Translations under genes and position numbers: made by a program
Shown: in pieces, positions 5,250 through 63,944 of the stretch
Numbering within the stretch: the stretch's first letter is position 1
Layout of the letters: each line of letters begins with the position of its first letter
Source: Octopus vulgaris
Lineage: Eukaryota
Direction: 5' to 3'
Length of the DNA: 64,000 bases
Assembly (NCBI GenBank): GCA_951406725.2
Contig: OX597815.1
Coordinates: 139,996,001-140,060,000, forward strand
Notes under the pieces: model-generated
Databases searched by the model: none
Seen by the model: the letters and a program-made list of their open reading frames with translations, nothing else
What the model was told of the DNA's origin: nothing

Positions 5250-6420
5250 GTTAAACTTCAAAGGAGGTAAACTTGAATGCGTAGCATGTGAAAACTTCAC
5301 CAACTTGAAACTTTTCAATTCTAAGGGTTTATGATTGTCCAATGAATGGCAGTTCTACCAAGTATCTTATTATGGAACTAATCGAACAACACGCTTGAAG
5401 TCTTTTAGAGAAGAAAAGAAAAAAGGAAGAAAATTGTTGATCACAGAATATCAAAAGCCTACGCTGTTGCTCTCTGTGTTGAAAACAGAGCTAGAGAAGA
5501 TGCCATAGAAAATTATTTGACACCATGAATAGTTTGCATCTAAAGGCAAGTTGTTCAATATTTCTTTCTGCATATTATTTAGCTCAGAATGACAGACCAT
5601 AATTTTGATCCCTTTGGTGTACTGGAACTTCAAAAGAAAAATGGTATTGATATTAGAATTAGACTTCGTTCCTGCACTAGTGCTACAAAGATAATTAATG
5701 GCATATCCATTAATATGAAAATGAAAATTTGCCAGCTTCTCGAGCAGATAATTGGTAAACTTTCTGTTCTCATTGAGGAATCAACAAGCATGAGCATTAA
5801 GATTGCCCTTAAAGTGTATTTGTCATGTGAAAGTGGTAAGGAAGTTGATCCCTATTTTATGGTTTTAAGCCTAATTGAACTGCCTGATCAGAAAACTGCA
5901 ACTATTTCTAAGCATCTATTGAGCTGTTTTATCAACCATGAGTTTGACGACGCTTGTAGTATTTACTAGTGACAGGGCGAGCATAATGTTTGATGTTACA
6001 TCTGGTGTTACAACAATTCGCAAGAAACAGATTGGAAGTTGCAATTAGTGATTTGGTGGGTGGAGTTCATAGAATTAATCCACTCTGTTTACAGTAGACC
6101 ACCTGCGAATCAAAAGCAACTGTATGAATGTGTTTCTCAACTAAAGCAAAACACTTTCAAAATTCGCCTTGTTCTGGACACCGGCTGACAAAATTATGAA
6201 AGGCCATGCCTTCATTTTGAAAAAAGCAATGGAAGATGAAACAAAATTTGGGAATGACAAGAATTTATTAAGATCTGTTGAGAATACTCTCTTCAGAACT
6301 GTTTCTATTGGACTATAGCGATAATCTATGATGCAATGTATAACAGCATGGTAAACGACTAGAAGCTGAAAGGGTATTTGAAAAGGTGAAATTAAGAAAA
6401 ATATCCTATGCAAGCTATAA
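5250..6420 (+). pseudogene. Degenerate hAT-superfamily transposase (KIAA1586/ZNF862-like)
   Basis: KLSVLIEESTSMSIK..VYL..LSLIELPDQKTATISKHLL (first catalytic DES/T region), followed out of frame by FTSDRASIMFDVTSGV (SDGASVMxGxxSGV-like); many stops and frameshifts; boundaries approximate. Confidence 0.7.
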
Positions 6421-6701: not shown

Positions 6702-7261
6702 TACGTACAAGTAATGACATCTAATGCTACAGGTATGTAGTGGCCGTCTTTTTTGCTTGCATGGAAATACAAGTAAATTTTGACAAATGGCTTTTATATT
6801 ATACTTAAGCTTATTGTAATTTACATGCATATATTATATATCAGTTTTGTTTATTATTGTTCCTAATGTTATCGCTCTTGTAATCATTGCCGTTTGTGTT
6901 GTGATTTACACTAACTAGCAGTTTGTCATAATAATACATTTAAATTTATTTTAAACGTAGAAACACAAAGACTACAAAAGCTGTGCGGATGCATCTGTCG
7001 CACTCTGCTACCTTCTTTGTTCCCAGTACGTATATAATATTTTTTACTGTTCTCTCCACGGAGTGATACCGCCCCTTTTGAGGAGTATTGATTTACCGTT
7101 TCCTATGAGTCGTATAAAAAAACTTGCAAATTCCCTGGAATGTTTTCAAACTTCTGAACCTTAAAGTACATATAGATCCCAGCTAAATGAAATGTGTGTC
7201 GTCGTTAAAGGTTACTGAGCCCTTGAAACACGGTCTAATTGTGGAGAAACTTGAATTCATA

Positions 7262-7658
7262 TCTTTATATATAAAAGTGAAGTTGTGTGTCTGTCTCCTA
7301 CGATTCAGATTCCTAACTACTCCCACATTTTGCGGTGCAGTTTAACCAAAACCGGGTATCTTATAGCCATGATTCATATCGAGCCCTTCTGGGTATTAGC
7401 GCGCGTCTATGATGAGTCTACGATTTAAAAAAAAAATTACCATCATTTTTTCCAATTTAATGCTTTTTTTCGCTATTATATAAGGGAAGTAACTCTCTAA
7501 AAATGTCTACGATGAGTCAACAATTTAAAAAAAAATTTACCATCATTTTTTTTCCATTTTTAATGCATTTTTTTGCTATTTTTTGGCTATAACTCTCTAA
7601 AAATGCTTATATAGTTATTTCCCTTACAAACCCGAGCAACGCCGGGCGATACTGCTAG
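7262..7658 (+). mobile_element. Non-autonomous Helitron
   Basis: Starts TC after host A, ends CTAG before host T, subterminal hairpin CCCGAGCAACGCCGGG, no TSD; internal ~100-bp tandem duplication (GTCTA.GATGAGTC..AATTTAAAAAAA..TTACCATCATTTTTT twice). Confidence 0.85.
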
Positions 7659-9370: not shown

Positions 9371-9572
9371 GCAGCACGGAATTTTGTCAGTGAACAGGTC
9401 GCGGTTTGAAAGCGACGAAAATATTTTCACAAATTAAATTTTAATGTTGAAGTGAATCTAACGGGTTTTGTGTTTCTTTAATGGCTTATAAACACTTTCC
9501 GCGCTGCAATTGTTTTCGTTCCAGCACGCGGTCTCAGATCAGGTCACTTGCTATGCAAGTACACCTCCGTAA
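9371..9572 (+). mobile_element. Short non-coding Penelope-pLTR-like repeat between (TA)n arrays; homologous to 60608-60808 (minus)
   Basis: ~200 bp match to the reverse complement of 60608-60808; contains a hammerhead-like motif. Confidence 0.75.
9383..9433 (+). ncRNA. Type I hammerhead-like motif with GUGAACA (G3/C8) core, copy 1
   Basis: tttgtca-GTGAACA-g-gtcgc(ggtttgaaa)gcgac-GAAA-atat-TT-tcacaaa; one stem I mismatch relative to copy 2. Confidence 0.55.
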
Positions 9573-9597
9573 TACATACATATATATATATATATAT

Positions 9598-21846: not shown

Positions 21847-22089
21847 ATATATATATATATACATTACCTATATATGTTTGTTTGTATATGCTGTGTTTGT
21901 GTATGCTTGTGCAATTAATGTGCATCAGCCCTTTATCATTCTTATATTATGTTTATAGGCTTATGTGTATGTGTGTATGTGTGTATGTGTGTGTGTGTGT
22001 GTGTGTGTGTAGAATTGATTTACGTAGATGATTAAGGTGAACATATATTGATTGGTGTTGAAGTTGTGTGGTTATTCCATCATATTTTC

Positions 22090-23100
22090 CTGTATTTGCG
22101 GGAGTTGATGTGCAAGGCAAGTATGCTCTGAAGATCTCAATCTTATTGTTCAATTTTATATTATTGGATTTTAATCCGTGAGCTATCCGGAACTTCCCAG
22201 TTAGGCAAAGAGAACATCTCTTGGTTCTTCTACCCAGAATTTTCCATTTGATGGTAAATGGTATTCTTTTCCTTGTAGTTTCCAGACTCCAGACTAGTTG
22301 CGTGATTTCTGTTGTCCTCTTTCCCGGATGTTTGAAGAACCTAACATGTGAATGGTACTGTTGCTTAAAACGATCCTGTACCATACTCACATATTATTCT
22401 CCGTTCTCTGTTTGGCTGGTTCGAACTGGTGCAATGGTGGCTTCATATACTATAGACTTCACTTTACATTCTCGTTGTTGCGGGTAGTCATCCTTTATCA
22501 TGCAGGAACATCCTTGGTTTTATTCGGATTCGATTTTTGGGGTGATTTTTGGCCTCATGTAAGGTCTGCAGAAATAGCTGATTTTCTCAGAATGCCTATT
22601 GATTATCTTATACTTGCTTTTGTTTTTGTCTCCTGATTCAAGGTTAGATATATACTTAATTTCATCTTTGGGTTCGCTGTCTTCGAGTACTTCATTATAG
22701 TAAGGAGCTGTTTATGAAATATCTATTTTGAGGAAGATAAGCTGGAGATCCTGCAGCTAATATTGAGGACTAGGTTTTTAAATACTACGGGTGGCATGAC
22801 TCTCTGTTAATATATCTTAACCTTTCATTGAGTTTATGGTACAGTTTATAAGCATCTGTAGTTAAATCTAGGTTAACATCTGGGAAATTAGCATTAGTGA
22901 GCTTAGTACCTACTGTTATTTATAGTCTTAAGTTGCTAAGGGTCTCAGTTAGGTCTTTACAAAATTTATTTATGGTATGGGCGTTGCATTTATGCATGAT
23001 AATTAAAGTATCGTCGCGGTAGAGATCAATGGTGCGGTTGTGGAATTTTTCCTTAAGTGTTTGAAGGATGAATAATCTAATGAAGTTGCTCACACTGAGA
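22090..23100 (-). mobile_element. Old degenerate Penelope-like element (RT C-terminus + GIY-YIG endonuclease)
   Basis: DLYRDD RT motif (~23010-23030); GCSC..YP..ECKVKSIVYEATI..YVSMVQDRFKQQYHSH..VWSL..FTIKWKIL..CSLCL..KLNNKIEIF, collinear with the element at 41469-42508; multiple stops. Confidence 0.85.
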
Positions 23101-33997: not shown

Positions 33998-34200
33998 TTA
34001 ATTGTTTCAGTCGTTGGACTGCCGCCATGCTGGGGCACAGCCCTGAAGGGTTCAGTTGAACAAGCCGACTCCAGTACATATTTTAAAGCTTAGTACTTAT
34101 TCTCTAGGTCTCTTTGCCGAACGTCTAAGGTACGGAGACGTAAACAATTCAACACTGGTCGAAAAGCGTTGGTCAGGGACAAACACAGCACAAACACAAA
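33998..34200 (-). mobile_element. 3' half of SINE family B
   Basis: TTGTTTCAGTCGTTGGACTGCCGCCATGCTGGGGCAC.. matches the family B tail. Confidence 0.7.
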
Positions 34201-34350
34201 GGTACGCACCCTACCCATATATATAGTACTAATAGGCATCCGTCTGTCTCGAGAGGCCATGGATTTGTACGCGAAGAAACTGTGTCAGCTGGTGTCAGTG
34301 GTGCAGCGTTTGCTGCGGCTGTTGATGCCCACACGCATATATATATATAT

Positions 34351-34541
34351 TTCCAGAGCTGCTCTCTGCCTGACTTTATTACCTCCGATGTTATACCGTC
34401 TTTCCTTGGCGCCTTTCTGTTTTCCATCAAGCCGATGGCTCTTTCAACCTCACTGACAAGGATAGGTGGCACATTTTCTTCCTGTTGGAGTGGTGGTAAC
34501 GGCTGGACATTTCTGGTAGACTTAAAGAGCTTGGTTATCAC
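34351..34541 (-). mobile_element. Inverted 5' segment of the adjacent RTE LINE
   Basis: Minus strand VPPILVSEVERAIGLMENRKAPRKDGITSEVIKSGREQLWK, the RT domain-0 region that normally lies upstream of QAGF. Confidence 0.85.
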
Positions 34542-35709
34542 GTCATCTCGACGAACAACAACCGAGGGAACAAGCCGGCTTCCGGAAGAACTACAGTACG
34601 ATGGACCATATATTTACTCTAACACAACTGCTTGAGCGAGCTAATGAGTTCAAGCTGCCTCTTTGCGTTGCGTTTGTAGACTATGAGAAGACCTTCGATA
34701 GCGTGGAAACCTGACGCAGTGCTAAACTTGCTGCAGAGGCAAGAAGTCGAGGCGCAATATATGCAACTGCTCAGGGAGGCAAATTCCGGATGCACCGCCG
34801 ACATAGCTCTACTGTCATCACCCGTACGAGTGCCAGTCGAGAAGGGAGTGAAGCAAGGCGATACGATCTTCCCAAAACTTTTCACCGCATGTCTCGAACA
34901 GATCATCAGAGGCATTGACTGGCAAGGCGGTGTCAACATCAATGGCCAGCTCCTCACCCACCTCCGTTTCGATGACGACATCGTACTCATCACTGAAACC
35001 ACGGATCAGCTTCAGACCATGCTGACGGAGCACGACATCAAAAGCTCTGCAGACAACGTACCAACCGGTCGAATGGTGATCGGCAGTGATGAAATAGAGG
35101 AGGTAAAGGAATATGTCTACCTGGGACAGGAAGTGAATATGTGCCGAGATATCAAAAAGGAAATCTCAAGGAGAGTAAGGGCCGGATGGAAGGCGTTTAA
35201 TGGCATAAGGGATGTGCTCAAGGGAAGGTTGGACAGGACCACCCGCGCCAACCTCATCAACAGTACAGTTCTACCTGCAATGTTATATGGTAGTGAAACA
35301 TGGGCTACCACAAAGGGAGAAGAGCAGAGATTGGTAACGGCTCAAAGAGCCGTAGAGAGTTCAGTGCTTGGTATCTCGTTGAGAGAGCACATCAGTAGCG
35401 AGATCATCAGAAAGAAGTCCGGCGTGAGGGATGTCATCGCAGAGTATACACGCAACAAGTTTAGATGGGCTGGACACGTCGCCTGGCTCACCAATAATCG
35501 GTGGACCCGCGCAGTTGTCGAGTGGTACCCGCGCGAGCGGAAACGCCCACCCGGAAGGCCTCCACGACGGTGGAGTTACGATTTCAGGAGGACGATTGGG
35601 ATCACGTGGATGAGAAAGGCGCGATCCAGAGAGGAGTGGACAGCGTGCTGTGACCAGCGGTGTCAAATGGACGCCTGACGGACTGGTCGATGAAGGTGAT
35701 CAAGGTGAT
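34542..35709 (+). mobile_element. 5'-truncated RTE-clade LINE reverse transcriptase (frameshift near 34708) with 3' end
   Basis: LDEQQPREQAGFRKNYSTMDHIF..FVDYEKTFDSV / KGVKQGDTIFPKLF / HLRFDDDIVL / YVYLG / LYGSETW / RWAGHV / RPPGRPPRRW; tail (AAGGTGAT)x2 then (TA)n. Confidence 0.95.
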
Positions 35710-38242: not shown

Positions 38243-38248
<6 letters not shown>

Positions 38249-38710
38249 TATATAGAAGGAGCTTCTACAGGACTAGTACTGTTTCATTCAAGAGAAATCT
38301 TCAGGAAGCTATTTAACAAGAATTGTATTAGCATTTATACATTTAGGCAGGTTTAAAGGAGTGGTGGTGGGGGACTTTTTTGGGGGTAGGCATAGCGCAA
38401 AATATCATACTTGGGGGAGTGGTCAAGGAGTCAGTGGTAAGTTAGATGAAAGAATAGATAAATAAAAAAATAAATAAATAAAAAATAAAAAAATAAAAAA
38501 ATAAAAAAATAAAATAAAAAAATAAAAAAATAAAAAATATAAAAAATATATATAAAAAAATATATATATAAAATATATATATAAAAAAATATATATATAT
38601 AAAAAAAGGGGGATAGAGTTATAGGTAAATAAGGAGATTCTCACTTATACCTATACACACATGTATACGTATCTACACACACATACATACATACACATAT
38701 ATATACACAC

Positions 38711-38756
<46 letters not shown>

Positions 38757-40156
38757 CATATGTACACACATACATACATATCTACATACACACATACATA
38801 CACCCGCCCACATATACAAATTTATACACATGCACATGCCTATACCTGTCTACACATACACACACGTATATATGCATACACTCACTCCCATGCATGCACG
38901 CATACACACATGTATATATATATATATATATATACCCACGACCACACATACATATATACACATAAAAATATATATTCATACGCACATACACTCATGCACA
39001 CACAACACACCTAGTTCCCTATATACACATATTTACACCTATATATACATACACCTATGTACACATATATATATATATAAACATATACACGCATACATAT
39101 ATATACATGTGTGCACATACATACATACACACATATATACATACACATACACATACTCATGTGTACCTATACATACCTACACATACACACATACATACAT
39201 ACAAATATACATATACATATATATATATACAATCCAATACAGGCCCATTCCCTAATTTTAATTTTATTATCTTCATTTATTACTTTTGTTATCTTTGATC
39301 GCTAGGGCTAAGAATCCTGGCAATGGCTGCATGTCCATTTGTCTGTCTACTAGAAGGCAAGTACTCATTCCCGCACGCACACTCATTAGCACGTACATTC
39401 ACCCATTCGTACACTCATACACATACACGTACGCACGCGTTATATTCATACATACAAACATCTACATACGTTCACGTATATACACATACTTACTCGTACC
39501 TACAGATTCGTGTCTACACTTTAGGAGGCTAGTCTATACATATACACCAATAAATATATATATATATATATATACCCGCATATACATACACACACACACA
39601 TATATACTCCTACATACAGATACATACCTATATATATATATATATATACACATACATACACATACACACATACATATACACACACATACATACACATATA
39701 TATACATACACAAACATATATACACACATATATATATACATACACACATACACACATACATACGTATACATACATACATACATACATCCATACATCCATA
39801 CTTACATGCATTTATACGCATACACACACCCATCTATATATATGTATATATATATATATATATATATACACACTCACACATACATATACAAATCTACGCA
39901 CACACATACATACATACACGTATACGCATACACGCACATACACATATACATGCGTACCCATACACGTGCACACACGCACGCGCATCCATATATATACACA
40001 CTCACACATATATATACACGTGTGCAAGCATACATACATACTCATACGCGCACACATACTTACAAACACATATATGCACACACTTACACACATATATATA
40101 CATACACATATACATGCATACATACATATATGCATACATACACACACGCACTCATA

Positions 40157-40190
<34 letters not shown>

Positions 40191-40261
40191 CATATATATA
40201 TACATATATAGATATATATACACATACATACACATACACATACATACACACATATACACAC

Positions 40262-40296
<35 letters not shown>

Positions 40297-40802
40297 TACA
40301 TATATACACATATACATACATATACATACACACACACATACATATATACATATACACTGATACACATACCCATACATACACATGCATATACTTATATCAC
40401 TACATACTCACATATATAAACATATACACATATACACACATACATATATACATGTACATACACATACGTATGCATATATATATATACATATATATACACA
40501 TATATATATATATACATATATACACACACACACACACATACATATACACATATACATGTATACATACGCAAAAAAGATACACATATATACACATACACAC
40601 ACACAGACAGATGCATATACATACATATATATATATAAACTACATATCTATATAAATACATACATAATACACATATACACACACATATATATACATTCAT
40701 GCATATACATATACAAGTATACATACACATACATACACACACACGCGCACACATACATATACACACACACATATACAAATACATACATACACACATACAC
40801 AT

Positions 40803-40843
<41 letters not shown>

Positions 40844-40928
40844 CATGTACACATACACATATGTATATATATATCAACAAGGGAGGGTAAAGTTAATTAG
40901 TTATTAATCAATTTCATCAAGTGTTCAG
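38243..40928 (-). repeat. Left inverted arm (3' UTR/pLTR in ORF sense)
   Basis: Reverse complement of 42509-45203, including unique islands such as GATCGCTAGGGCTAAGAATCCTGGCAATGGCTGCATG; mirrored ORFs in the track. Confidence 0.97.
38260..38310 (-). ncRNA. Type I hammerhead ribozyme motif (copy in ORF sense)
   Basis: Minus strand agcttc-CTGAAGA-tttctcttgaat-GAAA-cag(tactagtc)ctg-TA-gaagct. Confidence 0.75.
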
Positions 40929-41208
40929 TATGTAAAGGGACCATTATTATTTTGAGTAAACAATGTTAGAGGGAAAAAAATTCTCTAAGTAGTGGAAGAG
41001 GCTAAAAAACTTTATTGGCTGCTATTTCTAGAAAGTTTAGTATGTGGCAAAGTAATTTATTTTATTTTCCTAAGCCCTAATTATATAATATTTTATACAT
41101 ACATACACATACATAAGCACATACATTTACACATACATATGCATATACATATATACACATATACATACAAACACATATACACATATACACACACACACAC
41201 ATACAAGC

Positions 41209-41240
<32 letters not shown>

Positions 41241-41468
41241 GCAAATATATATACATATATATTTTTACATGCATACATACACACACACACACATAATACA
41301 TGCGTATATTCCTACTGTACCCATGCATTTCTATACATATATACATACATACATACGATACACATATACAAGCGTGCACATATAATATGTGAAAGGTCTT
41401 AGGAGAAAAGGTAATCGGGGGTGCTAGGGGAACAGTGGGGTTGGGGGGGGGGTTGGGGGGGGTTGTCA

Positions 41469-42508
41469 TCAATCAGGTTGCCGGGTAGGTCTATAGTTCT
41501 TGTAGTTCGCATACTTCTTATGCATGCAATTTGGGGAGTGTTCTGAAAATTTGTTAAGGAGAGGGCCTTTGGCGAACAGGATCTCTAGGCTCTCTGATAT
41601 GCATAGGTCACAGCAGGTATGTCCTCCTGTGTACGAGCGCGCCTTCTGTAGTAGTTTCCACTTGGTCTTGAAGGGGATTGAGTTCCTTTTAAGGTACCAG
41701 ATGTGGGCGGCGAGGGTAGTTTGGTTGGATTTATCCTGTCGCCGGAACGAGTGTGTATGTGCATACCAGCGGGTCTTAAAGCTGTTTGACGTCATTCCAA
41801 TGTAGGATTTACTTTTATCGTCAAGGCCTGATCTTACCTCGCATTTATATACTAGGTCCCTCTGTAGGCAGTTGTTGTTGAGGGGGCAGGTGGTTTTATC
41901 ATGGCAGTTGCAATTGCTATCGGACGTTGGATGGGCCCCGGAGAAAGTAGATATGTTAAGTTTTTTCACATTGTTGTTGGCTAGGTTCCTGGCTAGGTTG
42001 GGCGTGGTAGAGTAGGAGAGTCTAATAGTGTTCTTATTTAGGATAGTGTAGTACTTATGTTGGGTGGGGAAGTGTTTCTGTAGGAGAGTGAAAAAGATCT
42101 TAGCTACAGGTGTAGCGACCTCACGGTTGAAGGGGGGTTGTACCAGCTAATGTGTCTTCGTCTATTTTTCCTGGGCTGGCGTGGGGCTATACTAGTGTAG
42201 GTAATCTTATCTTTAAAACCACTGCGGGCCAGGGCCTCGTTGTAATAGGGGGCTGCGGCCTTAAAGATATCTTCCGTGGCGGACAGGCTAGAGATTCTAA
42301 TTGAGACACTTTTTACTAGGTTATCTAATATATTTCTGGGGTGGTTGGAATTGATATCTATATATCTAAGGGATTCATTTGGTTTGTGGTACGGGTAATA
42401 AAGTGAGGTTTTTAAGTCGAGGGTGACATCTAGGAAGTTAGCCTTAGTTAAGTTGGATTCTAGGGTAATCCTAAGGCCTAAGTTTTTAAAGAAGGTGTGA
42501 AGATTTTT
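41469..42508 (-). pseudogene. Penelope-like ORF, 5'-truncated: RT thumb, CxCx5Cx5C linker, GIY-YIG endonuclease with CCHH residues (Naiad-like)
   Basis: KNLGLRITLE..ANFLDVTLDL..YHKPN..SNHP..YYNEALARSGF..ISWYNPP/FN..NKNTIRLSYS..CNCHDKTTCPLNNNC..LVYKCEV..SYIGMT..FKTRWYAH..HIW..CDLC..LLNKFSE..CMH; single 1-nt frameshift in the G6 run at 42132-42137. Confidence 0.93.
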
Positions 42509-42593
42509 CTGAACACTTGATGAAATTGATTAATAACTAATTAACTTTACCCTCCCTTGTTGATATATATATACATATGTATATGTGTACATG

Positions 42594-42638
<45 letters not shown>

Positions 42639-43138
42639 ATGTGTGTATGTATGTATTTGTATATGTGTGTGTGTATATGTATGTGTGCGCGTGTGTGTGT
42701 ATGTATGTGTATGTATAATTGTATATGTATATGCATGAATGTATATATATGTGTGTGTATATGTGTATTATGTATGTATTTATATAGATATGTAGTTTAT
42801 ATATATATATGTATGTATATGCATCTGTCTGTGTGTGTGTATGTGTATATATGTGTATCTTTTTTGCGTATGTATACATGTATATGTGTATATGTATGTG
42901 TGTGTGTGTGTGTATATATGTATATATATATATATGTGTATATATATGTATATATATATATGCATACGTATGTGTATGTACATGTATATATGTATGTGTG
43001 TATATGTGTATATGTTTATATATGTGAGTATGTAGTGATATAAGTATATGCATGTGTATGTATGGGTATGTGTATCAGTGTATATGTATATATGTATGTG
43101 TGTGTGTATGTATATGTATGTATATGTGTATATATGTA

Positions 43139-43173
<35 letters not shown>

Positions 43174-43242
43174 GTGTATATGTGTGTATGTATGTGTATG
43201 TGTATGTATGTGTATATATATCTATATATGTATATATATATG

Positions 43243-43276
<34 letters not shown>

Positions 43277-43772
43277 TGAGTGCGTGTGTGTATGTATGCA
43301 TATATGTATGTATGCATGTATATGTGTATGTATATATATGTGTGTAAGTGTGTGCATATATGTGTTTGTAAGTATGTGTGCGCGTATGAGTATGTATGTA
43401 TGCTTGCACACGTGTATATATATGTGTGAGTGTGTATATATATGGATGCGCGTGCGTGTGTGCACGTGTATGGGTACGCATGTATATGTGTATGTGCGTG
43501 TATGCGTATACGTGTATGTATGTATGTGTGTGCGTAGATTTGTATATGTATGTGTGAGTGTGTATATATATATATATATATATATACATATATATAGATG
43601 GGTGTGTGTATGCGTATAAATGCATGTAAGTATGGATGTATGGATGTATGTATGTATGTATACGTATGTATGTGTGTATGTGTGTATGTATATATATATG
43701 TGTGTATATATGTTTGTGTATGTATATATATGTGTATGTATGTGTGTGTATATGTATGTGTGTATGTGTATG

Positions 43773-43822
<50 letters not shown>

Positions 43823-44690
43823 TATGTATCTGTATGTAGGAGTATATATGTGTGTGTGTGTATGTATATGCGGGTATATATATACATATGTATATTTATT
43901 GGTGTATATGTATAGACTAGCCTCCTAAAGTGTAGACACGAATCTGTAGGTACGAGTAAGTATGTGTATATACGTGAACGTATGTAGATGTTTGTATGTA
44001 TGAATATAACGCGTGCGTACGTGTATGTGTATGAGTGTACGAATGGGTGAATGTACGTGCTAATGAGTGTGCGTGCGGGAATGAGTACTTGCCTTCTAGT
44101 AGACAGACAAATGGACATGCAGCCATTGCCAGGATTCTTAGCCCTAGCGATCAAAGATAACAAAAGTAATAAATGAAGATAATAAAATTAAAATTAGGGA
44201 ATGGGCCTGTATTGGATTGTATATATATATATGTATATGTATATTTGTATGTATGTATGTGTGTATGTGTAGGTATGTATAGGTACACATGAGTATGTGT
44301 ATGTGTATGTATATATGTGTGTATGTATGTATGTGCACACATGTATATATATGTATGCGTGTATATGTTTATATATATATATATGTGTACATAGGTGTAT
44401 GTATATATAGGTGTAAATATGTGTATATAGGGAACTAGGTGTGTTGTGTGTGCATGAGTGTATGTGCGTATGAATATATATTTTTATGTGTATATATGTA
44501 TGTGTGGTCGTGGGTATATATATATATATATATACATGTGTGTATGCGTGCATGCATGGGAGTGAGTGTATGCATATATACGTGTGTGTATGTGTAGACA
44601 GGTATAGGCATGTGCATGTGTATAAATTTGTATATGTGGGCGGGTGTATGTATGTGTGTATGTAGATATGTATGTATGTGTGTACATATG

Positions 44691-44741
<51 letters not shown>

Positions 44742-45270
44742 ATATATATGTGTATGTATGTATGTGTGTGTAGATACGTATACATGTGTGTATAGGTATA
44801 AGTGAGAATCTCCTTATTTACCTATAACTCTATCCCCCCTTTTTTATATATATATATTTTTTTATATATATATTTTATATATATATTTTTTTATATATAT
44901 TTTTTATATTTTTTATTTTTTTATTTTTTTATTTTATTTTTTTATTTTTTTATTTTTTTATTTTTTATTTATTTATTTTTTTATTTATCTATTCTTTCAT
45001 CTAACTTACCACTGACTCCTTGACCACTCCCCAAAGTATGATATTTTGCGCTATGCCTACCCCCAAAAAAGTCCCCCACCACCACTCCTTTAAACCTGCC
45101 TAAATGTATAAATGCTAATACAATTCTTGTTAAATAGCTTCCTGAAGATTTCTCTTGAATGAAACAGTACTAGTCCTGTAGAAGCTCCTTCTATATAATA
45201 AATTAATTTTACTCTGCTATGTATTGAGTACCTTACTTACTGTGGTTAACCCCGAATCAACCCGGGACCT
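42509..45270 (+). repeat. Right inverted arm plus unduplicated tail (45204-45270)
   Basis: Begins CTGAACACTTGATGAAATTG (mirror of 40909-40928); ends ..GGTTAACCCCGAATCAACCCGGGACCT. Confidence 0.97.
45136..45186 (+). ncRNA. Type I hammerhead ribozyme motif; predicted cleavage after GUA at 45180
   Basis: Stem I agcttc/gaagct, CTGAAGA 45142-45148, short stem II (ttc/gaa), GAAA 45161-45164, stem III ACAG/CTGT. Confidence 0.75.
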
Positions 45271-45272
45271 AC

Positions 45273-45344
<72 letters not shown>

Positions 45345-54395: not shown

Positions 54396-54982
54396 CTAAT
54401 ACTGTACATTTCCTTCAGACATATTCTTTTACAACTATATTATCCAATTTAAATTATAGGATGTAGGGTGAAGGGAATTCGGTTGTTATTGCTAACATAT
54501 CCAGTCATTATGTAGAGGCTATTTCTCTCGGTGACTCGTATAGTTTACCATAAACGGAAGTGTTAGCCAAAAGACAGTACAAGTATGGATTATAACATTG
54601 CATACATTGTTATATATTTACCTATTTTACATACATCATGCAAGATAAATTCCATTTTTTGAAACTATAACCACTTCGAAAGACGGTAAACAAACCACCT
54701 GATAGAAATTGTGATCGACTCTAAATGAGAAAGTAAGATAATTTCAGGAATCAGGTATTATCCAAAACTGTCATCCATAAAGAAACTGATTATGTTGTGT
54801 TTTTTTTTTTCTGGAAACAACAGGATAAGAACGGTTTTATGTATCTCTCTCAATAAGCGTCATCAGCACAGCAATTTTTCTACTTTGACTTCTGAATACA
54901 TAAAATATAGCCCGATACAAAAGAGTAGAGAACATTTATAATTTAGAGTAATCAGTATAATCAATAGAGAATATATAAAAAA

Positions 54983-55053
54983 ATGAAAAAAAAAACAACT
55001 CGAAGAAATTATATATATATATATATATATATAATTTCTTCGAGTTGCTTTTT

Positions 55054-55059
<6 letters not shown>
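54983..55059. repeat. Near-perfect palindrome centred on (TA)n
   Basis: ATGAAAAAAAAAACAACTCGAAGAAAT-(TA)n-ATTTCTTCGAGTTGCTTTTTTTTCAT. Confidence 0.9.
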
Positions 55060-55115
<56 letters not shown>

Positions 55116-55761
55116 ACGTTTGTATGTGTGTGTTTGTATGTGTATTTTGATGCATCAGTTATTTTTTTTACCAGATGTCTTTATGCTTTCGATTGAAGAA
55201 TACTGTAAACAATATTAGCAATAAATGTAAAATACAACCACATCTTTGATTGATTTATACATAATATCAATATTTGGTCGTGTTTTTACAATGATGGTTA
55301 GAATTTTTATTTGCCAACGATATTGTTTTGTCTACAAGCGAAATAACTTCCTGAAAACGGAACACTTATTTCTCCTCAGTTAGTTATTATATCGCACACA
55401 GCGATAAGAATCACTACCGCACGCAATCACTACCCAAATATATATATTGGCAAGAAATTTAGACAAATAGATTTGCGAGCTGTTGCATATTAACATAGCT
55501 ATGATTTAGCGACGTTGAAGAGCAAGCAGGACGTATTTCCAGAGGGACCACAAAATTTTGTAACAACGCATTTCATGTTTGAGTTAATGACACTTTATGG
55601 GCAAATTAACTGACAGGCTAAAGATTGATTTTTTTTATAGCATTGTCCATGATCTTTACAGAAATATCGACCTTGGCGTACGTCTGTTTATTTGCCCACA
55701 CGTTACATATAATAGGATTGTGCCGACGCTTAGATACTTCTGCACAGTTTGGTTATATGCA

Positions 55762-55817
<56 letters not shown>

Positions 55818-55824
<7 letters not shown>

Positions 55825-55968
55825 ATTATATAGAAGGAGCTTCCTGAAGATTTCTCTTGAATGAAACAGTACTAGTCCTGTAGAAGCTCCTTCTATATAA
55901 TAAATTAATTTTACTCTGCTATGTATTAGTACCTTACTTACTGTGGTTAACCCCGAATCAACCCGGGA

Positions 55969-55971
<3 letters not shown>
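55818..55971 (+). mobile_element. 154-bp non-coding mini-insertion of the same Penelope-like family: inverted 26-bp end + hammerhead + tail
   Basis: 55838-55971 is essentially identical to 45136-45270 (1-nt deletion); 55818-55843 is the exact reverse complement of 55883-55908; (TA)n on both flanks. Confidence 0.92.
55838..55888 (+). ncRNA. Hammerhead ribozyme motif, third copy
   Basis: CTGAAGA 55844-55850, GAAA 55863-55866, GTA 55880-55882. Confidence 0.75.
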
Positions 55972-56064
<93 letters not shown>

Positions 56065-56473
56065 ATGTGTGTGTGTATATATATGTATGTGTATGTGTAT
56101 ATATGTATGCACGTATGTGTGTATGTGTGTGCGCGTGTGTGTGTGTGTGTGTGTGTGCATCATTGATTTGACTAGGATTTCATGTTTAACTTTTGACGGC
56201 TTCTTCCACGTGGTTGAATAAGCTCTAAAATCCCTGTCGATTCCATAAATGAATTATCAATAAATAACTCTACAATATTAAGGGTCACACCATAAATAAA
56301 CGTTTTGTTGTTACCTACAAGTCGATGAACAATACTAGATAATACATACATTCATGCATACATTCATACATTCATACATATGTCTGTTTAGTGTTGTATG
56401 TTGGGAAAATAGAGTACTCAGAACCATGGCTGAGGCCTGAAGTTTCTGTGTCTCAGAGTAACAGGAGTCTGAC

Positions 56474-58692: not shown

Positions 58693-60607
58693 GTGTGTGT
58701 GTATCTGTATGTATCATTTTTTATCTCCTTGAGTACTTCCTATAATTAAGCAGCTGGTTTGTAACGAACAAAGCTCTATTATTGGAATTTCGGATGCCAA
58801 CAAAATATTGAGTTACATCTTGAATTTTAAAATAAGTCGAGTTTATTTTCACTAATCCGGTTACTGACTGAATTTGCAGATTCTAAGTTAGAGGATCTCT
58901 CATTCCTTTTCTGTCAGAAACACCCAACTTTTCCGAATTAATACATGGACACTGTGCACCAGTAATTATAGGTACAAATGTACATGTACAATCTTGATAG
59001 AGACGATTGAATAAATGTTCGGTTTTCCGTAATTTTGCATGAAATGTTGTCTTCTACTGGGGTGCTGGCCCCTCCAACAGTAGTTAGACTCCTATAAGAG
59101 TATTGATTGATTTCTATTAGACTGTTTTCCAAAACAGTATATGGCTTATATTTACGTCCCAAACAGTATGTGGCTTATATTTACGTCCCAAACAGTTACG
59201 TTAGTTATGATGTGACTGTATGAAGCGTACGTTTTTATGGTGATGTCCCACTAGTATACCCCATGATAGAATACAAGAAATACAGTCACTATCAGGAGTA
59301 ATATTGGTTTCAAATCTTGGCACAAGGGCAAAATCGACTTACCCCCTCGATGGCGGTCCCTTCTACGGAATACATTGTATTTTGTTTTAGCAATAATGAC
59401 ATACTTCATATGTCTACATAAGTGAACAACTCAAGTTCTCATGCATAATGTTCATATACTTTACAGTTTCAGTCGCATCTTAGCAGTTCAAGAACTTCAC
59501 CGTCTGTATGTTCAACTGGTATTTTAGCATCCATCTCTTCATCTTGGTTGGCGAAAGTGTAAACATTCGAAGAGCCATGAACCGTGTCATGATTCCCAAG
59601 ACAAGCTATTCTTCTAGGCAATACTGGCACCGTTCTCAATGTGGTCATGCATCACCTTTTGTCGGCATACGGAATGTTTCTTCTCCTTGTCTTTGTTTGC
59701 CCAAAAGCACATAGCATGTTATCATGAAGTGAATTTTTTTCTTGATCAATTAACCACCGGTCTGTGAGTTGTTTTATTCACTTTGAAGCGTTTATTTGTT
59801 GAGGCATTTGTATTTTGTTGCCGTTGCTTGGCAGATAATATCTGAGAGATATCATATCATATTACTGATATCATACGATATCAAAGCTGTCCGAATTGAT
59901 TTTGTTCCTAATTTCTCTGTATTTTATTCTGAGATACAGCCTGTCAACACCACTATTCCCGTGGAAGCTTCCAATTGAAAATAGGATCTTGAGGGTTTTA
60001 ATATCTATGGAAATATCTATGGAACGGTTTTCTTCTGCAGACCAGAGAAATATCATCTATTTTTCTGACAGATATGCGTGTATGTATGTATGTATGTATG
60101 TATGTATGTATGTATGTATGTATGTATGTATGTATGTATGTATGTATGTATATACGAATGTATGAATCTGCACGCGTATGTGTGTGTACGCAAGCATGTC
60201 ACTGCTTTTTGGTATAACTTTGAAGCATTCTGGCAACACAGCGACGCACTGTCTTCTGTTGATATGTAGAAAATCCTTCATCTGATGTCATACTACATAA
60301 AAATTGTACAAAAATCCCGGATGTGTGTTATAGGGTTCTCAACGAGAGAATACCAACCGAGTACATTCTTTCCAACTCTCGTGATTTTATTTGCCTTGTT
60401 TATGATTGCATTTCGGTGTTACGTGGTTAATAGTTGCTGCCGAATGAATATGATGCGACATTCAATAGCTCTTTGAACTGAAGTTAACTCTTTGTCGCCT
60501 TGTTTTTATTTTAGGTAAAAATTGATTAATAGTTGTTAATAGTTCTTCAGCTTTATCATCAACGACCCGGAACTTGTGTTTGTATTTAGTAAAAGTTTTA
60601 ATGTAAA

Positions 60608-60860
60608 TTACGGAGATGTACTTGCATAGCAAGTGATTTGATCTGAGATCGTGTGCTGAAACGAAAATAATTGCAGCGAGGAAGGTGTTTGTAAGCCATT
60701 TAAGAAACACACAAAAGCCGTTCGATTCACTTCAACATTTAAGTTTAATTTGTCAAAATATTTTCGTCGCTTTAAGACCGCGACCTGTTCACTGACAAAA
60801 ATCCGTGCTTTTGTGTGTTTCTTAAATGGCTTACAAACACCTTCCTCGCTGCAATTGTTT
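60608..60860 (-). mobile_element. Non-coding pLTR-like element with tail, hammerhead-like motif and inverted partial copy
   Basis: 60608-60808 matches the reverse complement of 9371-9572; 60807-60860 is an inverted copy of 60665-60718. Confidence 0.85.
60749..60799 (-). ncRNA. Type I hammerhead-like motif with GUGAACA (G3/C8) core, copy 2
   Basis: Minus strand tttgtca-GTGAACA-g-gtcgc(ggtcttaaa)gcgac-GAAA-atat-TT-tgacaaa; 7-bp stem I, 5-bp stem II. Confidence 0.6.
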
Positions 60861-63745: not shown

Positions 63746-63944
63746 AATTTTGTGCATTATTTACATTATTTACATTCGACGGATATTTGTCCTCATCTTG
63801 TTTGTTGTTAACACAACGTTTCGGCTGATATACCCTCAGCCAAAACGTTGTGTTAACAACAAACAAGATGAGGACAAATATCCGTCGAATGTAAATATTG
63901 TAAATAATGTACAAAATTCTTCATCTCTTAAATATAGAACTGTA
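63746..63944. mobile_element. 83-bp-arm hairpin with unduplicated tail; pLTR fold-back remnant
   Basis: Arms 63746-63828 / 63836-63918 (3 mismatches), loop TATACCC, tail 63919-63944; arms carry cagcc-GAAACGTT-gtgt. Confidence 0.8.

Follow-up and report, generated by a model that had tools for sequence, protein, structure and literature searches.

Structure of the mini-element

The window, a 64-kb stretch of DNA, carries a 154-base hairpin at 55818-55971. This mini-element represents the tail end of a Hydra-clade Penelope-like retroelement (PLE), copied head to head at very short length, and is a tidy minimal case of a known insertion layout; its family was not matched to any named one. Its parts and flanks are as follows, with plus numbers counted from the predicted cut.

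55765..55817, no strand: left (TA)n target microsatellite, with one additional T adjoining the arm
55818..55843, minus strand: short inverted arm, copying +1 to +26 past the predicted cut and ending at one of the recurrent short ends of the family
55838..55843, plus strand: 6-bp arm overlap, corresponding to stem I's native 5' strand and to 45136-45141, where 5' breakpoints of the family cluster
55838..55888, plus strand: type I hammerhead-like motif, called from motif and helices in the sequence and from likeness to Hydra-clade motifs in the supplement of PMC8557442
55889..55971, plus strand: long-arm tail, up to the family long end (+89)
55972..56053, no strand: right (TA)n target microsatellite

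The short arm (55818-55843) is the perfect reverse complement of 55883-55908, and pairing is lost at both outer edges of this 26-bp inverted repeat. Because the GUA triplet occupies 55880-55882 and base 55883 is the first past the predicted hammerhead cut, the repeat begins directly after that cut. A sequence-only reading of this DNA had described a 26-mer that inverts the sequence following GUA and lengthens stem I from 6 to 26 bp, with the arms joined through a 6-bp microhomology at stem I; both the exact complementarity and the position of the microhomology were confirmed. Homology to two other copies in the window (45136-45274, plus strand; 38310-38243, minus strand) starts only at 55838, and the upstream sequence of those copies differs, so that stem I measures 6 bp in its native form and is extended to 26 bp in the mini-element by the arm that the junction supplies.

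The right end of the mini-element (55971) corresponds to position 45270, where the large copy described below has its long end, and a single deleted base is the sole difference between 55838-55971 and that copy. The long arm runs intact across the predicted cut site. A target duplication is unreadable, since (TA)n lies on both flanks. The fold had a z score of -7.1 and was matched by none of 200 shuffles. Perfect inverted repeats of at least 16 bp with arms no more than 100 bases apart number four in the 64 kb and are thus not rare here.

The large copy and the identity of the family

The window also contains a 7-kb head-to-head insertion at 38243-45270, which carries a remnant of an RT/GIY-YIG open reading frame (ORF).

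38243..41468, minus strand: 3' region of the large copy, with an intact hammerhead (core 38304) and a short end at +23 into (TA)n
41469..42508, minus strand: 5'-truncated ORF remnant in two frames, with RT thumb region, CxCx5C linker, GIY-YIG-type endonuclease, CxxC and CxH
42509..45270, plus strand: inverted arm of the large copy, with an intact hammerhead (core 45142) and a long end at +90

The minus-strand arm spans 42508 to 38243 and includes the truncated ORF, and the opposite arm (42509-45270) aligns with 40928-38243 over 2708 columns at 98.4% identity. The long-end arm is without the ORF and the ORF arm is without the long end, so the large copy needs two cDNAs; each arm has a feature that the other lacks, and they therefore cannot be mutual fold-backs. 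In each of the two window insertions, one end is long (+89/+90 from the cut), the other is short (+23/+26), and both lie in (TA)n. The 3' region of the large copy (~3.2 kb) is mostly microsatellite and was duplicated together with the element.

The ORF remnant had 6579 relatives at E values up to 0.001, of which the full-length ones measure about 700-760 aa. Across 28 sequences, C79, C81 and C87 of the linker and C179, C182, E185, N198, C207 and H209 were invariant. The GIY-YIG-type domain of the remnant has no internal cysteines, and CCHH is absent. The RWK/DKT part is missing from the truncated copy, and DKT is invariant among the relatives. Pfam gave no GIY-YIG match on the remnant and a weak RVT_1 match in one of six relatives; the RT and GIY-YIG calls are therefore based on motifs and the published alignment.

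Elements of the Hydra clade are described as having a C-terminal GIY-YIG domain without the internal CC, a CxCx5C linker, and CxxC and CxH around the E and N residues; they also carry a type I hammerhead close to the 3' end, insert into (TA)n and show an inverted 5'-truncated copy and a one-sided tail (PMC8557442). The features listed in that description were found in the window family also. By its motifs, the linked copy at 41469-42508 places a GIY-YIG domain C-terminal to the RT; it has the CxCx5C linker, lacks CCHH and carries the CxxC and CxH motifs that surround E and N. Its hammerhead is of type I and lies close to the 3' end, and its target is (TA)n. The family differs from the published description (PMC8557442) in its tail, which is ~63-67 bases here and 30-40 there, and in its ~3.2-kb microsatellite-rich 3' region, 3-bp stem II and 8-base stem III loop. 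The remnant shares 58 of 95 residues with Hydra-1_Obim (counted by eye), and the hammerhead differs despite this match, which makes the families distinct. The likeness to Hydra-1_Obim, together with a general character of the DNA that recalls octopus genomes, suggests a cephalopod host. Two window motifs had no match in the supplement of PMC8557442. Pattern scans for copies of the mini-element family in metagenome, genome and viral contigs found none, a word-index protein search gave no match, and no Hydra-type relatives were found in viral contigs.

Two further remnants lie in the window. The first (21953-22600, minus strand) is a second, older remnant akin to the Hydra-type endonuclease region, with no intact hammerhead called beside it. 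The other (34173-35678), which matches Pfam RVT_1 at E 2.5e-5, is a broken remnant of a non-LTR reverse transcriptase, one piece of which lies on the opposite strand.

Hammerhead-like motif and predicted folding

The mini-element motif comprises a core at 55844-55850, a 3-bp stem II (55852-54/55859-61), GAAA at 55863-66 and a 4-bp stem III (55866-69/55878-81) with an 8-base loop, and the predicted cut falls between 55882 and 55883. The core CUGAnGA, GAAA, NUH and three helices are thus all present, which bears out the type I hammerhead-like motif of the earlier reading, and the core is intact in all three window copies. Rfam models did not match it: the whole window gave no match at the gathering score, and 55700-56100 gave 32 matches at E values up to 10, none of them to a hammerhead family. 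The assignment as a putative hammerhead rests on the motif, the helices and likeness to Hydra-clade hammerheads in the published set (PMC8557442).

The extended arm had been expected to yield a more stable hammerhead. This held for stem I, whose predicted pair probability in short constructs rose from 0.39 (native) to 0.99 (extended), the native value being 0.01 in a longer context; stem III rose likewise from 0.30 to 0.72. It did not hold for the whole active secondary fold, which was predicted at 0.0003-0.012 in native contexts and moved from 0.012 to no more than 0.034 with the extension. Stem II still had a pair probability of 0.10 with the extended stem I, and the predicted active fold remains at about 3% because of this weak stem. 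We know of no promoter for the mini-element copy. A plain 26-bp helix would offer no loop for contacts between helix I and helix II, and the cleavage products would probably stay paired. Such contacts are required for efficient hammerhead cleavage (PMC7229834), and metazoan PLE hammerheads are reported to cleave poorly in vitro (PMC4209133).

Other head-to-head elements in the window

A head-to-head mini-element of another family (63746-63918) is joined across stem II, 5 bp long, of a partial hammerhead. One arm begins at the 5' foot of the helix, the other where the 3' strand of the helix begins, and both continue through the GAAAC-GUU site without a cut. Its geometry equals that of the mini-element, on stem II instead of stem I. 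The CUGAnGA half is absent, and the hammerhead call is therefore drawn from motif likeness. A pattern scan of viral contigs for this family found none.

At 60607-60856 (core 60792, minus strand), a hammerhead-like arm has its start 10 bases 5' of stem I; the inverted arm, 50 bp long, starts ~36 bases past the cut. This copy and its sister at 9373-9573 begin at nearly the same base. The motif has the C3-G8 pair swapped to G3-C8, a 7-bp stem I, a 5-bp stem II and a very short stem III; no match scoring at least 13 occurred in 20 shuffles. An inward-facing inverted repeat around a (TA)n run, in a tail-to-tail layout, was also seen at 54971-55071.

Ends and breakpoints in public contigs

Contigs, not reads, of four public runs (12070, 2363, 2091 and 1310 contigs; handles X1 to X4) were aligned to 44987-45268, and 24 of 162 loose-end rows were listed, by a ranking rule that is not stated. 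Loose ends into (TA)n occurred at 45203 (+23) in 19, 12, 12 and 14 contigs of the four runs and, among the rows listed, at 45207 (+27) in 10, 2 and 4 contigs of the first, third and fourth runs. These recurrent short ends (+23/+27) agree with the window short ends at +23 and +26. Because they recur in four runs, the short arm is likely to be a second, separately primed cDNA of 20-26 bases, which supports the second cDNA that had been put forward as its probable origin.

The sole 5' breakpoint cluster among the 24 of 162 rows listed falls on the 5' foot of stem I (45136), with 19 contigs in X1 and seven in X3. None of these rows has a breakpoint at the cut (45181). A peak at GUA, for which the sequence-only reading proposed to test among breakpoints of the family, is thus not supported by the rows listed, which have their cluster at the foot of stem I; a small cluster at 45181 is possible among the other 138 rows, and a copy that spans just the 23-27 bases between a short end and the cut would escape alignment because of its length.

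The loose letters of X1 at 45136 agree with the reverse complement of 45140-45161 at 20 of 22 positions (21 with the common 45146 variant), and with a mini-type arm at 7 of 20 (both by eye). The commonest X1 junction at this position is therefore an AGCT-centred palindrome whose two arms both run through the cut. The X3 cluster is mixed (agreement 0.64), with 9 of the last 14 letters suiting the palindrome. One additional joint reaches 45136 without stem I homology (45197, G, 45136). The mini-type junction was not seen again in these contigs, for which no strand-change joint was listed. Palindromic junctions of very high-copy repeats may be library artefacts. A restriction-ligation origin of the AGCT palindromes was thought unlikely, given a second AGCT (45183-45186) and longer reference palindromes without a listed cluster.

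Summed contig depth, which is not copy number and did not enter the argument, climbs from upstream into the hammerhead in X4, with no clear rise in X1 or X3. We dropped the loose ends at 44990, 44999, 45044, 45061, 45208 and 45209 because they resemble subfamily or indel variants, as well as the single-contig X2 ends at 45152, 45188 and 45264 and the X2 row at 45208, which share a common linker-like string.

Arm starts in related loci

An ORF search retrieved 87 Hydra-type loci of other families from other hosts, and their arms were curated by hand. We counted 22 arm starts near a hammerhead, leaving out reciprocal hits, microsatellite matches and three boundaries of diverged subfamilies (L027, L078, L083). 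Also left out, as lying far from a hammerhead, were the ORF-internal starts in L018, L034, L040, L043, L045, L072, L077 and L080, the inverted arms of L015, L039, L068, L076, L078 and L085 and those inside the L081 and L084 ORFs. Loci L078-L087 come from contigs that are filed under bacterial genomes and carry microsatellites and Penelope elements of the animal type, likely through host contamination.

Five of the 22 arm starts, from four events, lie 9-15 bases 5' of the core, where 0.73 would be expected under a uniform distribution (P about 0.006 for at least four).

L053, 1426: arm starting 9-15 bases 5' of the core
L054, 2280: arm starting 9-15 bases 5' of the core
L081, 6097-6313: arms starting 9-15 bases 5' of the core, twice
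L087, 8010: arm starting 9-15 bases 5' of the core

In L053 and L054 the element is full-length and has the hammerhead at its beginning. As a side result, arms of Hydra-type elements often start just 5' of stem I, and we did not find this stated in the open-access literature searched.

One of the 22 starts falls exactly at the cut without stem overlap (P about 0.12 for +1/+2 if uniform over 360 bases). It belongs to a head-to-head mini in L087 (7260-7384) flanked by (TA)n runs, in which a 51-base inverted arm (7260-7310) starts from exactly +1 with a 1-base overlap and no stem homology. Another copy of the L087 family has a 4-base duplication at the cut site (5683-5686). The short arm of L038 passes through the cut into stem II, and L072 (511-556) contains a spacer-less palindrome with a 23-base arm and an ORF-internal truncation point without native microhomology. 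None of 90 hammerhead calls in the 87 loci had a stem I longer than 11 bp, and hence the mini-type junction was not seen again in these relatives.

Comparison with known systems

In the Poseidon element PAc of Anolis, both strands are nicked at AT-rich sites and uncut RNA is the main template; two internal start sites downstream of the hammerhead set the long and short ends in vitro (PMC11167929). The long and short ends in the window fit two such internal start sites. PAc belongs to another clade, and its 5' junctions and inversion points are not mapped in the consulted sections of Frangieh et al. 2024 (PMC11167929).

Penelope elements of Adineta vaga have head-to-head inverted pLTRs with overlapping arms, junction palindromes and microhomology-mediated 5' joins (PMC3846280). 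The window family resembles them in its head-to-head arms, overlap and junction palindromes, whereas self-priming is proposed there and, in the consulted parts of that paper, the junctions are not related to hammerhead helices (PMC3846280).

Non-LTR retrozymes are likewise short and non-coding, carry a type I hammerhead and are kin to PLE pLTRs (PMC7229834; bioRxiv 10.64898/2026.07.22.740005). They are, however, direct tandem repeats that yield circular RNAs (PMC7229834), and the mini-element is a single head-to-head copy. We rejected its assignment to the non-LTR retrozymes, as the window holds no tandem copy of it.

Origin of the junction

The mini-element was probably formed from two separately primed cDNAs in (TA)n, joined by annealing over the 6 bases of stem I. 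The endonuclease would nick both strands of (TA)n. A first cDNA would start at +89 on uncut (or religated) RNA, copy the whole hammerhead and stop at the 5' foot of stem I, as is usual for the family. A second cDNA, begun at +26, would carry a copy of the 3' strand of stem I, to which the last 6 bases of the first cDNA would anneal; any overhang would then be trimmed and the gaps filled.

Stem I of a type I hammerhead has, by definition, a 3' strand that starts at the cut, so that the coincidence of inversion point and cut site is built in, whether the RNA was cut or uncut. The earlier reading had offered this coincidence as a possible sign of cleavage, but every junction mediated by stem I must appear to start at the cut. 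The arm of the mini-element could begin anywhere from +1 to +7, and evidence for cleavage must therefore come from other junctions. We agree with the reading that one copy cannot discriminate between the explanations, as either route gives the same product; the mini-element alone does not show in-cell ribozyme cleavage.

The stop at the foot of stem I may be an RNA 5' end, set by a start site or by a nuclease halted at the fold; it may also reflect snap-back of the finished stem, or a splice acceptor. A pyrimidine-rich stretch (45123-45137) ends in TAG (45135-45137) at the foot of stem I. The intron of Penelope in D. virilis ends at helix I (PMC4209133); most Hydra motifs in the published set examined carry no AG at the splice-acceptor position (PMC8557442).

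A less likely alternative, though one that we take seriously, is that the second cDNA was primed at +26 on hammerhead-cut RNA, ran off the template at +1 and annealed through its free end to the copy of the 5' strand of stem I in the first cDNA, which would make the junction a genomic footprint of germ-line cleavage. One reading of the arm has it start exactly at +1, it ends at a recurrent initiation end, and the core has stayed intact in the three window copies. Outside the window, the inverted arm at L087 7260-7310 starts at +1 with no overlap of the stem and so leaves run-off a live option, and the 4-base duplication at the cut site of L087 is in line with it. Against it, a single start at +1/+2 among 22 is within chance, no loose end falls at 45181 among the 24 of 162 listed, and the long arm and the dominant junction type derive from uncut RNA. 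Cleavage of the PAc hammerhead is moreover dispensable in vitro, and no RNA-seq reads started or terminated at its cut (PMC11167929); the poor in vitro cutting of metazoan PLE hammerheads (PMC4209133) also argues against run-off.

It is improbable that a single cDNA folded back, its 3' end snapping onto its own copy of stem I, growing by 20 bases and being captured by (TA)n through the AT-rich end of the extended cDNA. The short arm does lie entirely within the long arm with identical sequence, self-priming has been proposed for palindromic PLE junctions (PMC3846280), and the spacer-less palindrome of L072 has a 23-base arm that ends at no standard site. Fold-back, however, does not predict an arm ending at the family-wide short end and is unable to produce the large copy. 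Inverted repeats seed fold-back chimeras, and the junction was not seen again among the contig rows listed, but an assembly or library artefact is very improbable, as each end is a genuine family end within (TA)n and further examples of this layout turn up both elsewhere in the window and in contigs unrelated to it.

What the hammerhead does in PLEs is described as unclear (PMC8557442). In the open-access literature searched we found no paper that maps PLE inversion points onto hammerhead helices. The mini-element suggests a test for cleavage, in which junctions that overlap at a ribozyme helix are discarded and the remainder is counted. Tentatively, and at odds that we would put on the low side, Hydra-type junctions could preserve traces of two RNA 5' ends. 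The main one would lie just upstream of the hammerhead in its uncut state, with the ribozyme fold, a start site or a splice acceptor marking where the transposing RNA begins, and the minor one would lie at the cut. If this is true, the mini-element and L087 would be fossils of germ-line hammerhead cleavage, and the question of PLE hammerhead cleavage in vivo would become answerable by counting genome junctions.
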